IMG/VR virus record: IMGVR_UViG_3300037483_001818
DNA from: a virus
Taxonomy: Duplodnaviria; Heunggongvirae; Uroviricota; Caudoviricetes
Strand: one strand, 5' to 3'
DNA length: 35,991 bases
Shown: piece by piece, positions 21,934 to 27,193 of the stretch
Numbering within the stretch: position 1 is the first letter of the stretch
Layout of the letters: the number at the start of each line of letters is the position of its first letter
Notes under the pieces: generated by a model
Database searches by the model: none
The model's input: only the letters and a program-made list of their open reading frames with translations
Told to the model about the DNA's origin: nothing
Translations under genes and position numbers: made by a program

Positions 21934-22191
21934 GTGAAGTATTCGCCTGAACAAGCGATGTCGGACGGCGGCGTATCACGCTCTCGCGTGAATGCTGACG
22001 ATCGCGTGCTTCGTCTCCATCCGGCTGTCGGTGTCGTGTGCCCGGGCTGCGGCTCGCGGATCGGTAAGCCCTGCGTTTCGACCGTACGCTCATTCAATGT
22101 TGGTACGATTGGCACGCCGATCGAGGGTGTTCACGTCGAACGAATCGCCGCGGCGCGTGAGCGCGCGGAACGCGACCAAGGGGTCACGTGA
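21934..22191 (+). CDS. Small Zn-finger protein (CPGC..GKPC...H.ER)
   Basis: GTG 21934 with GAGGTG RBS (the ORF-track start at 21871 lies inside the hairpin); GTGA coupling to the helicase. Confidence 0.65.
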   Translation: MKYSPEQAMSDGGVSRSRVNADDRVLRLHPAVGVVCPGCGSRIGKPCVSTVRSFNVGTIGTPIEGVHVERIAAARERAERDQGVT

Positions 22192-23420
22192 AGTTCTCTC
22201 CCAACCAAGCAAAGGCACTCGCCGCGATCACGGCATGGCGCCTTGATCCAAACGCAAAGAAGACGTTTTATCTCGCGGGCGTCGCGGGCAGCGGTAAGAG
22301 TACGCTCACGCAGCACGCAGTCGCGGACGTGCGTGGCCGCGTTGTCTACTGCGCGCCGACCGGCAAAGCAGCTCTCGTGATGCAAAGGAAGGGCTGCGAC
22401 GGAGCGAAAACGGTCCACCAGACGATCTATCGGCCGGCCGGCGATCCTCCGTCACCGGAAGTGATCGCGAAGCTACGCGAGGAGATCAAACGGCTCTACG
22501 CGGTGAACGATCCGGGTGCTCGTGCGACGGCCGAGAAGCTCGGCGAGCAGCTGAAACGCTCCGAGGAAGACAGCAAGCGCAAGGGCCCCAGGTTCTCGCT
22601 GAATCTTGAGAGCGCATTGAAGACGGCCGCTATTGGCGTGGTCGATGAATGCTCGATGGTCGATAAGTTCATGGGCCAAGACCTTGAGTCGTACGGCGTC
22701 AAGCTTCTCGTGATCGGGGATCCGAACCAACTGCCGCCGGTCTATGGCTCGGGTTATTTCACGAGCCGGGAGCCGGATGCCTACCTCGACGAGATCCACC
22801 GTCAGGCACTCGACAGCCCGATCTTGCGTCTCGCGGACCTCGCCCGTCGCGGCGAACGTCTGCCGGTCGGTTTAACCGGCGATGGCGTTGACGTGCGTCG
22901 CTACGGAGATCCGACGCTGGAGGAGCGGGCTCTCAAGGCCGAGATGATCATCGTCGGCCGCAACCAGACGCGTCACGCGACCAACCACAAAATTCGGCGG
23001 CTGCTTGGTCGCAACGATCAGCCGTCTCCGGTCCAGGGCGATCGTGTGATCTGTCGTCGCAACAACCACGATCTGGGTCTGCTCAACGGCTCGTCATGGA
23101 TGGTCGACCGCTGTGTTGCGGATCTGGAGAAGATGACGGCGAAGATTGAAGTGATCTCCACGGAGGAGGATCACGAACGCATCGAGTGCTCAACGTGGCT
23201 GCACCACTTCATGGCGCGCGAGAAAGAACTGCCCGATCACAAGCGTCGCGAGCACGACGAGTTCTCGTATGGGTGGGCGATCACCGCGCACTCCGCGCAA
23301 GGCTCCCAGTACGATGACGTTCTCGTCTTCGACGAGTCGCGGCAGTTCGGCAAGGATGCTCCCAAGCACCTTTACACGGCGATCACGAGGGCAGCAAAGA
23401 CGCTGACGGTGGTGGTGTGA
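22188..23420 (+). CDS. Dda/RecD-like SF1B DNA helicase
   Basis: GVAGSGKST, APTGKAA, VDECSMV, GDPNQLPPV, EIHRQA, WAITAHSAQGSQY, YTAITRA. Confidence 0.95.
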   Translation: MKFSPNQAKALAAITAWRLDPNAKKTFYLAGVAGSGKSTLTQHAVADVRGRVVYCAPTGKAALVMQRKGCDGAKTVHQTIYRPAGDPPSPEVIAKLREEIKRLYAVNDPGARATAEKLGEQLKRSEEDSKRKGPRFSLNLESALKTAAIGVVDECSMVDKFMGQDLESYGVKLLVIGDPNQLPPVYGSGYFTSREPDAYLDEIHRQALDSPILRLADLARRGERLPVGLTGDGVDVRRYGDPTLEERALKAEMIIVGRNQTRHATNHKIRRLLGRNDQPSPVQGDRVICRRNNHDLGLLNGSSWMVDRCVADLEKMTAKIEVISTEEDHERIECSTWLHHFMAREKELPDHKRREHDEFSYGWAITAHSAQGSQYDDVLVFDESRQFGKDAPKHLYTAITRAAKTLTVVV

Positions 23421-23484
23421 TGGAGATGACTGACCGCATCCTCTTGATCGCGCCGCGAAAACGCTCACCGTCGTGGCGCCGTGA
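23420..23484 (+). other. Duplicated gene-junction remnant
   Basis: 23420-23449 encodes MEMTDRILLI (cf. VTSRILLL of 24227); 23449-23484 encodes RAAKTLTVVAP-stop (cf. helicase end RAAKTLTVVV-stop). Confidence 0.8.
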
Positions 23485-24230
23485 TGAAAGTGGCTGGTGG
23501 AGGATCAATGCCTGAAAAGATTCGGCGAAGATCCAGATTGGAGATTGTTGCACGTAGTGTCAAAGGCACCTTCATGTCCAAAAAGGAGAAGGAATGTAGA
23601 CACTGTCGGGCAATTAAGTCGATTGATCAGTTTCCAGTTAAACTTGACACGCGACAGAAGTCTTATGGTCCATTTTGCGTGCCATGCCTGGAACTGTTGA
23701 CTAAGCGTGTGTGTGCTTGTGGATGTGGCGAAAGTCTGTCCTCGACCGGAGGCAGCAGTTATGTGTTTGGGCATGATCCGACACTTGTTCGCCATCGACC
23801 TCTTGCCAGGCGGGAAGCTGTGTACAAATGGCACAGCCAGCATCCAGAGAAAATGTTTGGCTATCGAATCAAATATAAATTTGGAATGACAGTCGATGTT
23901 TATAATAAGCTAGTTGAGGCACAAGGCAATTGTTGTGCGATCTGTCGCGCGGATTCTCCAGGGCGCCGTTATCGTTACTGGTGTATCGATCATGATCATA
24001 CGACTGGCGTCGTACGCGGTCTTCTCTGCGGTCGCTGCAACAGCGGAATTGCGGCATTAGGCGATACAGCAGAAGGTATCAAACGTGCGCTCTCTTATTT
24101 TGCGCAGCCAGCTCCGACTTTTCCATGTTCGTCGCCGATCCTCGTTGAAAAGACGGACACTCAGGTTGCTCGTGGTGCTCAGCAGCTGTGCGGTGCGCTC
24201 GATGGACTTTCTACGGGGTTTTTGCTGTGA
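23481..24230 (+). CDS. Free-standing HNH endonuclease, EndoVII family (probable homing endonuclease)
   Basis: QGNCCAIC...IDHDHTTGVVRGLLCGRCNSGI; N-terminal CRHC/CVPC and CACGCG..YVFGH; visibly AT-richer than flanks. Start may be 23481, 23484 or 23508. Confidence 0.9.
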   Translation: MMKVAGGGSMPEKIRRRSRLEIVARSVKGTFMSKKEKECRHCRAIKSIDQFPVKLDTRQKSYGPFCVPCLELLTKRVCACGCGESLSSTGGSSYVFGHDPTLVRHRPLARREAVYKWHSQHPEKMFGYRIKYKFGMTVDVYNKLVEAQGNCCAICRADSPGRRYRYWCIDHDHTTGVVRGLLCGRCNSGIAALGDTAEGIKRALSYFAQPAPTFPCSSPILVEKTDTQVARGAQQLCGALDGLSTGFLL

Positions 24231-24709
24231 CGTCTCGCATTCTTCTCCTAGGTGAAAGCAATCCACTGTCGGGTGACCCGGAGTACGCGCTCTACTGCTA
24301 TCCGCCCGGCTGCTCTGGCCATCGCCTTCACCGCATCCTCGGGCTACCGGAGGAGCAGTACCTCTCGCTTCACCGCAAGAACCTTTGCGACGGCGACTGG
24401 TCGAAAGCTGAGGCGAAGACGCGCGCGTCGGAGTTGCTCGATCCCACGGCGCCGTGGCGTGTGATGGTGCTCCTCGGCCGCAAGGTCACCGAGGCGTTCG
24501 AGAAGGCGGCATGTCTCGACGCGCCGCTGATCGCTTTCTCGACGCGTGCGTGCTGCCCGGGCATGACCCTCGTTTCGCTACCGCACCCGAGCGGCAGGAA
24601 CGCGGCCCTGTGGAACCCCAAGGCGCGCGACCGTGCACGCCAGATCCTGCGCGAGCTTGTTCCCGAGCTGCCGTGGGGCTCGATCGTCGGCGAGGAAGCG
24701 GCGGCGTGA
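24227..24709 (+). CDS. Uracil-DNA glycosylase-superfamily protein
   Basis: LLLGESNP, SGHRL, VLLGRKV, LPHPSGRN motifs; GTG 24227 coupled to HNH stop. Confidence 0.72.
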   Translation: MTSRILLLGESNPLSGDPEYALYCYPPGCSGHRLHRILGLPEEQYLSLHRKNLCDGDWSKAEAKTRASELLDPTAPWRVMVLLGRKVTEAFEKAACLDAPLIAFSTRACCPGMTLVSLPHPSGRNAALWNPKARDRARQILRELVPELPWGSIVGEEAAA

Positions 24710-24900
24710 TCGAGATGGAGCAGCAGCGGCGCCGCGACGGTGCGGAGACGGCACGGGCGATCCGCGCCTTCTTGGCGACGTACGATGGCCGCGTCTCGAC
24801 GTGGCAGGTGGCGATGCGGATTCGTCAGCGGCTGCACAGCGATCTGTACCGTCGTGAGCGCGAGTATCCCGAGTGGGTCGACTACGGCGGTGAAGGATGA
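24706..24900 (+). CDS. Small hypothetical protein
   Basis: GTGA-coupled, GAGGA RBS, 64 aa. Confidence 0.6.
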   Translation: MIEMEQQRRRDGAETARAIRAFLATYDGRVSTWQVAMRIRQRLHSDLYRREREYPEWVDYGGEG

Positions 24901-25187
24901 TCGCCTGCCCGCGCTGCGGAGCCAAGACACGCGTCCTCGAGACACGCGTGACGGCGACGAGCGCGCGGCGTCGCCGCGGCTGCACGGCCAGCGGCTGTTC
25001 CGGTAAGGTTACGACCGTCGAGGTTGTCGTGCCGGAGGGTCGCGCCTCGGCCCTTGCCACGGGGAGCATCGTGGTGTCCGCGCGACAGATCGCGAAGCTG
25101 CGTGAGCTGGTCGCGGCGATCGAGGGAGGGCGGCAGATCGCGAAGCTGCACAAGCTTGTCGCTGCGATCGAGGAAGGCGCGTTGTGA
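24897..25187 (+). CDS. NrdR-like N-terminal Zn ribbon without ATP-cone
   Basis: CPRCGAKTRVLETR...RRRRGC...C..KVTTVE; C-terminus is a 16-aa imperfect duplication (48-bp period, 25086/25134). Confidence 0.78.
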   Translation: MIACPRCGAKTRVLETRVTATSARRRRGCTASGCSGKVTTVEVVVPEGRASALATGSIVVSARQIAKLRELVAAIEGGRQIAKLHKLVAAIEEGAL

Positions 25188-27193
25188 AGGACGCTGGGTG
25201 GCTTCAGACACCACTCTGGTCGCCAGAGATCACGTGGAAGCCTACGCCGGTCTCGGAGCTGCCAGCTTGGACCGATGCGAAGCGGATCTGTGTCGATGTC
25301 GAGTGCCGCGACGACGATCTCTACGAGCTGGGCCCTGGTGTTCGCCGCGGCGGCTACGTCTGCGGCATCGCGTTCGCGATCGAAGATGGTCCGGCGCACT
25401 ACCTGCCGATCCGCCACGAGGGTGGCGGCAATCTGCCCGAGCAGCAGGTGTGGTCCTACCTCCACGATCAGGCACGCGATTTCACTGGTGAGGTCGCGTT
25501 CAACTCAGCGCCGTACGACCTCGACTATTTGTGGGAGAACAAAGTCGAGTTCAAGAAGGCCAAGGCGCACCGGGATGTTCAGGTCGCCGAGCCGCTGCTC
25601 GACGAGCTCCAGAAGACGTACGGCCTTGATGCGATCTGCGCCCGTCGCGGCCTAGTCGGTAAGGACGAGACTACGCTGCGTGAGCATGCGAAGGCGTGGG
25701 AGGTCAACGCGAAGAAAAGCTTGTGGCGCCTTCACTCCGGTGCGGTAGGCGCTTACGCGATCGGCGACGTCCGCGCTCCGCTGCCGCTGCTCCGCGTGCA
25801 GGAAAAGGAGATTGACGAGCAGAATCTTCGCGAGACGTATGATCTCGAGTCTGCGGTGACGCCTGCTCTCGTGCGCATGACGCGCCGGGGGATGCGCATC
25901 GACCTCGACGAGATGGATCGCGTCGAGGCGTGGGCCAAGGAGCGTCTCCAGAACTACATCGACCAGATCCATCATCTGACCAACGTTCGGATCGGATCGA
26001 TCAGCAACGCAGAAGAGGTAGCTCGCGCCCTTCGGGCTCGCGGCCTCGATGTGCCGACCCGCACTCGCAAGGGTACGGGCCCCGGTACAGGCAAAGCCGC
26101 GAAGGTGGAGGCGTCGGTCACCAAGATCTGGCTCCAGCAGCAGACGGACGAGGTTGCCAAGGCCGTGGTATCCGGCCGCGAGTTCGTCAAGCTCTTGGGA
26201 ACGTACGTCGCGGGTTTCCGCAAGCATCTCGTCGGCGATCGGATCAATCCGACGTTCAAGCAGCTCGTCGGGGCCAGCGACGAGGATGATGGCGACGATG
26301 AGGATGCTGAGGGTGCGCGGTTCGGTCGTTGCTCTGCCAAGCATCCCAATGTTCAGGCACAGATGAAGCGGAGTAAGGAGATCCTGAAGCGCTGGCGAAA
26401 AGTGATCATTCCGGACGAGGGGAAGCGCTGGTTCAAGGCGGATCTAGGCCAACAAGAACCGCGCATTACCGTTCATTATGCGGAGCTGGTCGGGCTGCCT
26501 GGTGCGACGAAGGCCGGAAACGCGTTTCGCGACGATCCGTGCTTCGACCCGTACCAGCTCATGGTCGAGCTGTGCAAGACGCCCGCTGATACCGACCTCA
26601 AGCAGTTGCGTGATGACCTCAAGGAAATCTATCTCGGCCGCTGCTACGGCATGGGTGGCGGCAAGCTCGCGAAGAAGCTCAAGTTGCCTACGGTGTGGAA
26701 AACCAACGAGCGTACCGGATTTACCTACGAGGCCGCGGGTCCCGAGGCGCAGAGTAAGATCGATCGTTTCGACCGCGGCGTCTCCTACGTCAAGGCACTC
26801 TCGCGACGCTGTACTAAGAGGGCGCAAGAAAAGAAGTACATCGTCGCTCTCGGCGACCGGCGTGTCCGCTTCGAGCTAGGCGAGAACGGCGAAATTCTAG
26901 ATGAACACAAAGCGCTGAACAAGTTGATCCAAGGTTCTGCGGCACATCAGACGAAGACGGCGCTCGTTCGCCTCGACGCGGAAGGGTTTCCCCTTCAGCT
27001 CACTGTTCACGACGAATTTGGTTATTCGGGGGACAATGAGGACGAGGCACGCCGCATGGGCGAGATCACTTGCGACGCTGTCGTGATCCGCGTGCCGTTC
27101 CGCTGCGACATCGAAGCAGGACCAAACTACGGTGAGCTGACGAAACTGTTCACGGTGGCGAGCAAGCACACGACGCTTTCGATGGCTGCGTAG
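25184..27193 (+). CDS. polA: Phage family A DNA polymerase with 3'-5' exonuclease, no 5' nuclease
   Basis: Exo I DVE, Exo II FN..YDL, Exo III YAIGD; GARFGR..AKHPNVQ; motif A DLGQQEPR; motif B KEIYLGRCYGMG; motif C VHDE. Confidence 0.96.
   Translation: MKDAGWLQTPLWSPEITWKPTPVSELPAWTDAKRICVDVECRDDDLYELGPGVRRGGYVCGIAFAIEDGPAHYLPIRHEGGGNLPEQQVWSYLHDQARDFTGEVAFNSAPYDLDYLWENKVEFKKAKAHRDVQVAEPLLDELQKTYGLDAICARRGLVGKDETTLREHAKAWEVNAKKSLWRLHSGAVGAYAIGDVRAPLPLLRVQEKEIDEQNLRETYDLESAVTPALVRMTRRGMRIDLDEMDRVEAWAKERLQNYIDQIHHLTNVRIGSISNAEEVARALRARGLDVPTRTRKGTGPGTGKAAKVEASVTKIWLQQQTDEVAKAVVSGREFVKLLGTYVAGFRKHLVGDRINPTFKQLVGASDEDDGDDEDAEGARFGRCSAKHPNVQAQMKRSKEILKRWRKVIIPDEGKRWFKADLGQQEPRITVHYAELVGLPGATKAGNAFRDDPCFDPYQLMVELCKTPADTDLKQLRDDLKEIYLGRCYGMGGGKLAKKLKLPTVWKTNERTGFTYEAAGPEAQSKIDRFDRGVSYVKALSRRCTKRAQEKKYIVALGDRRVRFELGENGEILDEHKALNKLIQGSAAHQTKTALVRLDAEGFPLQLTVHDEFGYSGDNEDEARRMGEITCDAVVIRVPFRCDIEAGPNYGELTKLFTVASKHTTLSMAA

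Follow-up and report, generated by a model that had tools for sequence, protein, structure and literature searches.

Both gene ends at the overlap between two phage genes, one for a Dda/RecD-like superfamily 1 (SF1) helicase and one for a protein with the fold of the uracil-DNA glycosylase (UDG) superfamily, are present twice around the gene for a free-standing endonuclease in IMG/VR record IMGVR_UViG_3300037483_001818 (Caudoviricetes; the whole stretch of 35,991 nucleotides (nt) is called the window below). The best explanation, and a fairly probable one, is that an endonuclease gene of the DHHRN family was copied into the junction by a homing-type process, in which a double-strand break was repaired by homology on one side only. 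The remains of both gene ends at this site are referred to here as the scar.

Anatomy of the scar

All genes of this module are read from the + strand, and overlaps between stop and start codons link them into a chain. The resident allele of the helicase gene (22188..23420, assigned from Pfam and PHROG matches) encodes 410 amino acids (aa) and ends in ITRAAKTLTVVV-TGA, a tail conserved across 120 homologues; its native last codons, RAAKTLTVVV-TGA, are read at 23388-23420. The A of this stop opens the ATG of the next reading frame (TGATG, overlapping at 23420), which is the fossil start of the resident UDG-like gene. This consists of MEMTDRILLI (23420-23449, codons ATG GAG ATG ACT GAC CGC ATC CTC TTG ATC) and the first base of a Gly codon, extending over 23420..23450 as delimited by the end of homology to one relative (L002) and by a match to another (L004; both below).

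At this point a second helicase 3′ end begins in a different frame (23449..23484, RAAKTLTVVAP-TGA; CGC GCC GCG AAA ACG CTC ACC GTC GTG GCG CCG TGA), recognized by comparison of the two tails and apparently derived from a donor. It is untranslated in its own frame, which has a stop just upstream at 23431-23433 and no start codon after that stop. The frame of the fossil head runs on through this copy to a stop at 23513-23515 that overlaps the nuclease start (ATGCCTGA), producing a chimeric dead-end open reading frame (ORF) of 31 codons (23420..23515), found in the ORF list and in the sequence itself.

The free-standing endonuclease gene follows (23508..24230, 240 aa; Endo VII motif of the DHHRN/His-Me finger type, by its match to Pfam PF02945), with a GGAGGA ribosome-binding site at 23499..23504. 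An alternative in-frame start at 23484 overlaps the stop of the tail copy; the gene caller applied to a second contig with the same structure (L001, below) places the start at the ATG equivalent to 23508. The nuclease stop overlaps the GTG start of the working UDG-like gene as GTGA. This last gene (24227..24709, 160 aa, beginning VTSRILLLGESNP at the GTG at 24227) was assigned by its homologues and by a fold search. Its first 48 nt (24227..24274, VTSRILLLGESNPLSG) appear to be a replacement head carried by the nuclease cassette, judging by GC content at third codon positions (GC3), the limits of BLAST homology and the nearest relatives, all described below.

Evidence for the duplication

The original prediction, made from the window alone, described a duplication of both gene ends around the nuclease gene, with both neighboring genes left intact; every element of this arrangement was found where it had been placed, and both neighbors are indeed intact. 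The two helicase tails are identical at 21 of 30 nt and at nine of nine residues, with seven of their nine differences at third codon positions, which bears out the synonymous-type divergence proposed for them. The sequence RAAKTLTVV occurs just twice in six frames of the whole window, and a nine-residue match was obtained in none of 600 shuffles (the best, seen once, was of eight residues). The fossil head is identical at 25 of 30 nt to the gene start of relative L004, and among 120 homologues of the downstream protein the N-terminus seen most often is MEMTGRVLLLGE (modal form MEMTGRVLL...).

Two gene ends that each occur twice within 850 nt could also mean that the junction was tandemly duplicated in place and then diverged, or that two strains were assembled into a chimera. 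Both are very improbable. The differences between the tails are almost only synonymous although the copy is untranslated here, a pattern that an untranslated tandem copy would not acquire; the tail copy therefore acquired its differences as part of a functional helicase gene in another genome. Divergence between the copies amounts to 30%, yet an independently assembled contig from a second sample (L001, Logan SRR35148032) has a structure identical to that of the window, with a single mismatch in 6415 nt, at 26170, outside the scar region. A k-mer assembly chimera is excluded because the join shares only about 2 nt, an overlap that cannot create a chimera in a de Bruijn graph.

A 12-nt inverted repeat (23379-23390 and 23440-23451, 11 of 12 positions complementary) spans the join, pairing the helicase codons for AITR with DNA across the illegitimate join. 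By our estimate about one such pair is expected in a region of 951 nt; being at chance level, it was given no weight.

Empty and occupied alleles in relatives

Relatives of the window were drawn from other metagenomes (L002, for example, is a 68-kb contig from ENA), and the state of the slot between the helicase and UDG-like genes varies among them: it is empty in L002 and L003, holds another ORF in L004 and L005, and holds a nuclease gene in L006 and L007, as in the window and L001.

In L002 and L003 there is no nuclease, and the end of the helicase gene (...TVVVQQ-TGA) overlaps the start of the UDG-like gene (ATG ATG ACC GGC CGC GTC..., MMTGRVLLLGEQNP) with no duplication. This is the direct ...TVVV-stop/M junction predicted for relatives without the nuclease, in the form ...TVVV(QQ)-stop/M(E)MTGRVLLLGE; a duplicated junction in such relatives, which had been named as evidence to the contrary, is absent from these two. 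Relative to them the cassette is an insertion. BLAST homology between L002 and the window runs through the helicase gene and the fossil head, ends exactly at 23450, and resumes at 24276; for the relatives as a whole it resumes only at 24270-24276. In-silico deletion of 23451-24251 (801 nt) gives a gene beginning MEMTDRILLIGESNP..., with a MEMT start TGATG-coupled to the helicase gene and a length of 162 aa, the modal length of the UDG-like family.

L004 and L005 have an unrelated ORF of 88 codons in the slot (MTTDDVVKLKIAVQQ...; L004:2735-3001, L005:370-636), coupled to the helicase gene through TGATG and to the UDG-like gene through TAATG; the UDG-like gene there has an MEMTGRVLLLGEQNP head. 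Because L004 carries an unrelated ORF in the same slot, the helicase/UDG-like junction is a site of recurrent insertion and is not reserved for the nuclease. The slot of L006 and L007 is occupied by a nuclease of 214 aa that is homologous to that of the window (61% identity). Its ATG is separated from the helicase stop by 7 nt, and its gene has the same GTGA overlap into a shortened UDG-like head (VTLLLVGESNP). Neither tail nor head is duplicated there. Since the related cassette of L006 occupies the slot without duplication, the scar is the trace of one particular event and not a property of the nuclease element.

Foreign composition and a mosaic gene head

The nuclease gene had been described as AT-richer than its surroundings, and the GC profile agrees: at 0.503 it is the lowest-GC stretch of the whole window, against 0.619 +/- 0.025 across the 36 kb. 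GC3 is 0.45 in the nuclease gene and 0.44 over the opening 48 nt of the working UDG-like gene, as compared with 0.75-0.91 in the flanks; from 24275 it jumps to 0.85-0.92, with 0.85 for the remainder of the UDG-like gene. The nearest relatives of the UDG-like protein change as well. Residues 1-16 are closest to P0026 (14 of 16), a protein about 75% identical overall, while residues 17-160 are closest to P0002 and P0003 (about 90%), whose heads match at just 8-10 of 16 positions. P0026, P0008, and P0086 are UDG-like proteins with the same MTSR...NPLS head. By these comparisons codons 1-16 of the working gene and the remainder of that gene come from different lineages, and because composition, BLAST boundaries and nearest neighbors coincide at about 24270-24276, a crossover is placed there. 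In the stretch encoding G-E-x-N-P, the working allele reads GGT GAA AGC AAT CCA CTG TCG GGT and L002 reads GGC GAG CAA AAC CCG TAC GGC TCC. The nuclease gene is flanked, then, by foreign sequence of the kind left by co-conversion: a 48-nt head with the GC3 of the cassette and other nearest relatives, and a recoded copy of the helicase tail. The tail copy has a GC3 of 0.91, so the donor was GC-rich too.

The polarity of the exchange might be the reverse, with a resident that had the nuclease and the ...TVVAP tail, and an incoming nuclease-less relative that replaced the helicase side to 30 nt into the UDG-like head. Direction is not derivable from a single genome, and in GC content the tail copy is on a par with the resident genes. 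This history is nevertheless quite unlikely: the helicase (78-81%) and the body of the UDG-like protein (77-83%) have similar identity to each relative, nothing but the 0.8-kb block and its 48-nt head stands out in composition and phylogeny, and a break in the helicase tail would be needed with no nuclease to explain it.

A proposed history of the insertion

If the nuclease gene was acquired by one-sided homing, the donor would have been a moderately diverged, GC-rich relative and the recipient this phage or prophage, with the nuclease gene accompanied by a recoded stretch of ~16 codons from the start of the UDG-like gene downstream. In the ancestral state, the recipient genes would have met in a direct, translationally coupled junction (helicase-TGATG-MEMT...GE.NP). 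A double-strand break would have cut the UDG-like gene of this empty allele somewhere from nt +31 to about +58, over its invariant G-E-x-N-P codons, provided that the conversion tract ends at the right crossover. The right end would then have recombined homologously with the donor UDG-like gene, with the crossover at about 24270-24276; synthesis would have extended through the nuclease gene and into the donor helicase gene, copying its final 36 nt; and the copied strand would have been joined non-homologously to the barely resected left end, at 23449/23450. The outcome would be an insertion of 801 nt (23451-24251), a stranded 30-nt resident head, a stranded donor tail, and two intact neighbors.

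This history retains only part of the mechanism first proposed. Repair by homology on one side and by microhomology near a TCG at 23448-50 on the other had been suggested; the homologous right side and the non-homologous left side stand, but a shared TCG is not demonstrable. With recipient-type sequence up to 23450 and donor sequence from 23449 onward, the overlap has an upper bound: at most the CG at 23449-23450 is shared. The scar had also been taken to predict the target site; it delimits only an interval in which the cut would lie (gene nt +31 to about +58). As to the arrival of a homing endonuclease from a related phage, the cassette was inserted and the tail copy evolved in the helicase gene of another genome; that this enzyme made the break we infer from the position of the join, its family membership and its patchy distribution. 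An allele reconstructed by simply removing the nuclease, which had been suggested as a substrate for cleavage, would retain the donor-derived right half and would probably be immune, and the natural empty alleles are for that reason the correct substrates.

Several points weigh against this history. The comparison at the DNA level covers three distinct relatives only. No donor allele was found: none of the 120 best helicase homologues ends in ...TVVAP (a similar natural tail, ...TLTVVVP, is that of P0214), and a degenerate pattern for ...TLTVVAP-TGATG returned nothing in IMG/VR. Nor was a close relative found in IMG/VR, JGI metagenome contigs or GTDB genomes: single-protein and alignment-based scans of IMG/VR returned only relatives below 50% identity and without helicase/UDG synteny, the JGI contigs only distant Endo VII domains, and the GTDB genomes just two distant matches. 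Resection was extensive in one-sided events of T4, whereas 30 nt of the left end were kept here. The cut sites of free-standing endonucleases are often hundreds of bp away from the genes of these enzymes (PMC2988022), so the join need not mark the cut, which weakens the prediction of a target.

Another possibility is that the 0.8-kb block was introduced by ordinary illegitimate recombination between related phages or prophages resident in one cell, with the nuclease as cargo or without any homing function. Phage mosaicism generally leaves novel joints with remnants of sequence, and the 88-codon ORF of L004 indicates that the junction accepts insertions without this nuclease. We consider such an origin unlikely, since the odd block consists of exactly one endonuclease gene with short flanks, the join lies directly before the most conserved codons of the neighboring gene (G9, E10, N12, P13), as is typical of homing targets, and the replaced head fits a co-conversion tract conferring immunity.

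Reading frames across the scar

The ORFs form an unbroken overlapping chain, from the helicase through the fossil ORF, the nuclease gene and the UDG-like gene (GTGA) to the next gene (GTGA at 24706); the fossil ORF terminates 5 nt beyond the ATG of the nuclease gene. This chain could permit coupling by termination and reinitiation, in which the dead-end ORF might be translated and play a part; the overlaps are perhaps fortuitous. No promoter or terminator of the cassette's own was found on the + strand, and the cassette thus sits within an operon.

At 23482-23498, TGATG occurs again after the stop of the tail copy and is followed by AAA GTG GCT GGT (MKVAG), in frame with the nuclease gene. This stretch resembles the family head ATG GAG ATG ACC GGC at 9 of 15 nt, a match too short for significance; it may be a vestige of the start of the donor's UDG-like gene, or the donor's upstream, coupled start of the nuclease gene.

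The endonuclease

The nuclease was at first labeled HNH. It belongs instead with the Pfam family Endonuclease_7 (the DHHRN family; PF02945, E 5e-20, residues 120-198 of 240), and had no match to any other Pfam family even at E values up to 5, HNH (PF01844) included; its PHROGs label is also endonuclease VII. The Endonuclease_7 and HNH families are usually grouped in the His-Me finger superfamily.

The motif CX2C-DHDH-R-CX2C-N is complete and lies in the C-terminal half of the protein, with a Cys-rich region N-terminal to it. Its elements, CAIC (143-146), DHDH (161-164), R170, and CGRC-N (174-178, with N178), are invariant among seven nuclease homologues. They agree with the features by which the DHHRN family of F-CphI is defined: CX2-4C, a central DHDH, a conserved Arg, and CX2C followed by Asn (D40, H41, H43, R54, and N62 in T4 Endo VII; PMC6083498). 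The only solved relative detected by sequence is the restriction endonuclease Hpy99I, aligned in both regions, and not T4 Endo VII; Hpy99I has been assigned to an “endonuclease” clade, as opposed to a “resolvase” clade (PMC6083498). By these alignments, the nuclease resembles Hpy99I rather than a resolvase.

The five closest homologues are P0122, P0123, and P0125-P0127. Near its C-terminus the nuclease of the window has a 28-residue insertion (24120-24205, residues ~205-232, the PTFPCSSPILVEKTDTQVARGAQQLCG region) that is absent from all six closest homologues, with the ending ...LDGLSMGFLL otherwise common to them. A likeness between this C-terminus (..GFLL) and the UDG-like head was considered, and dropped as too weak.

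Neighboring genes and phage affiliation

The helicase matches the Pfam families AAA_30, AAA_19, and UvrD_C_2, and PHROG 325 (Dda-like helicase). An identical helicase protein is recorded on three contigs, the longest of 328,796 nt, which suggests that the element exists in prophage form too, or as part of a far larger assembly.

The downstream protein has 251 homologues. Its match to Pfam UDG is below threshold (E 0.02; 15.4 bits, with a cut-off of 24.3 bits), and a sequence profile of the family found no match in the PDB. For an AlphaFold2 model of the protein (predicted local distance difference test score, pLDDT, 83), however, the top 30 Foldseek matches were to UDG-superfamily proteins only (MUG, TDG, family 4/5 UDG, UdgX, and SMUG1; template modeling scores 0.55-0.66), with MUG, TDG, family 4/5 UDG, and UdgX foremost at 0.6-0.65. 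The description “UDG-like” therefore holds at the level of fold: on this model the gene belongs to the UDG superfamily, and its glycosylase activity is a prediction. The invariants of the family, G-E-x-N-P (G9, E10, N12, P13) and HPSGRN, would be placed where UDG motifs A and B are expected.

Between the UDG-like gene and the gene for a family A DNA polymerase is one for a 96-aa protein with an NrdR-like zinc ribbon (24897-25187; PF22811, E 1e-7), which is present in L002 and absent at that position in L004. The closest match to the polymerase (PolA), at 44% identity, is from Pseudomonas Ab18/PaMx11-like siphophages, and because of this match the element is regarded, from its sequence, as a distant, uncultured relative of phages of the Ab18/PaMx11 type. 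The collection of phage records searched held no DNA relative of the window.

Comparison with known systems

To our knowledge, few targets of free-standing homing endonucleases are known, and the family with the Endo VII motif has very few characterized members. The scar would confine the probable cut to a stretch of about 28 nt in a conserved gene, and the relatives provide natural empty and occupied alleles. One-sided repair would also explain how such a gene can enter a tightly overlapping operon without breaking either neighbor.

Among characterized DHHRN enzymes, F-CphI of cyanophage S-PM2 (Fang et al., 2018; PMC6083498) is similar in having its motif in the C-terminal half, in its extra N-terminal region, and in being free-standing in a phage. 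There is no detectable full-length similarity between it and the nuclease of the window, and the slots differ (the helicase/UDG-like junction here, the psbA intron site there); the phage studied here is GC-rich and Mesyanzhinovviridae-like, and cleavage by its nuclease is a prediction.

Intronless homing by SegF, SegG, and MobE of T4 (PMC2988022; PMC2790892) likewise involves nuclease genes that lie between conserved genes, are variably present, and have a co-converted tract alongside. The T4 cases are clean gene conversions, whereas the window has one non-homologous side and duplications of both gene ends. One-sided homing is established experimentally for the T4 td intron, with microhomology junctions (Parker et al., 1999, as cited in PMC2988022), and the scar would resemble it in the use of homology on one side only and, perhaps, in a junction of minimal microhomology on the other. 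The td system was built in the laboratory, its enzyme was intron-encoded and resection was extensive, while the scar would be a natural product involving a free-standing gene and almost no resection, and so a natural counterpart of the repair route worked out in the laboratory by the Belfort group.

The principle of such scars is already established, comparable ones being found in fungal mitochondria (PMC3630166) and yeast (PMC7282813). In the mORF hybrids of mitochondria (Allomyces atp6; Glomus atp6, atp9, cox2, and nad3) and in the WHO elements of yeast, an endonuclease gene is accompanied by a foreign, recoded end of the target gene, and the native end persists as a fossil. Those elements replace the 3′ end of their target, whereas the cassette in the window replaces the 5′ end, as a mirror image; it also duplicates a 3′ piece of the upstream gene, because the two neighboring genes overlap. 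A bolder proposal, offered tentatively and rather doubtful in its entirety, is that the scar might be a natural snapshot of one-sided intronless homing by a DHHRN enzyme that targets the G-E-x-N-P catalytic-loop codons of a phage UDG-superfamily gene. The mobile unit would be the nuclease gene with its 48-nt recoded, cleavage-immune 5′ head, and the stranded resident head would serve as a leader ORF handing on ribosomes between the helicase stop (TGATG) and the start of the nuclease gene, making the cassette a 5′-end mirror of WHO elements and mORFs.

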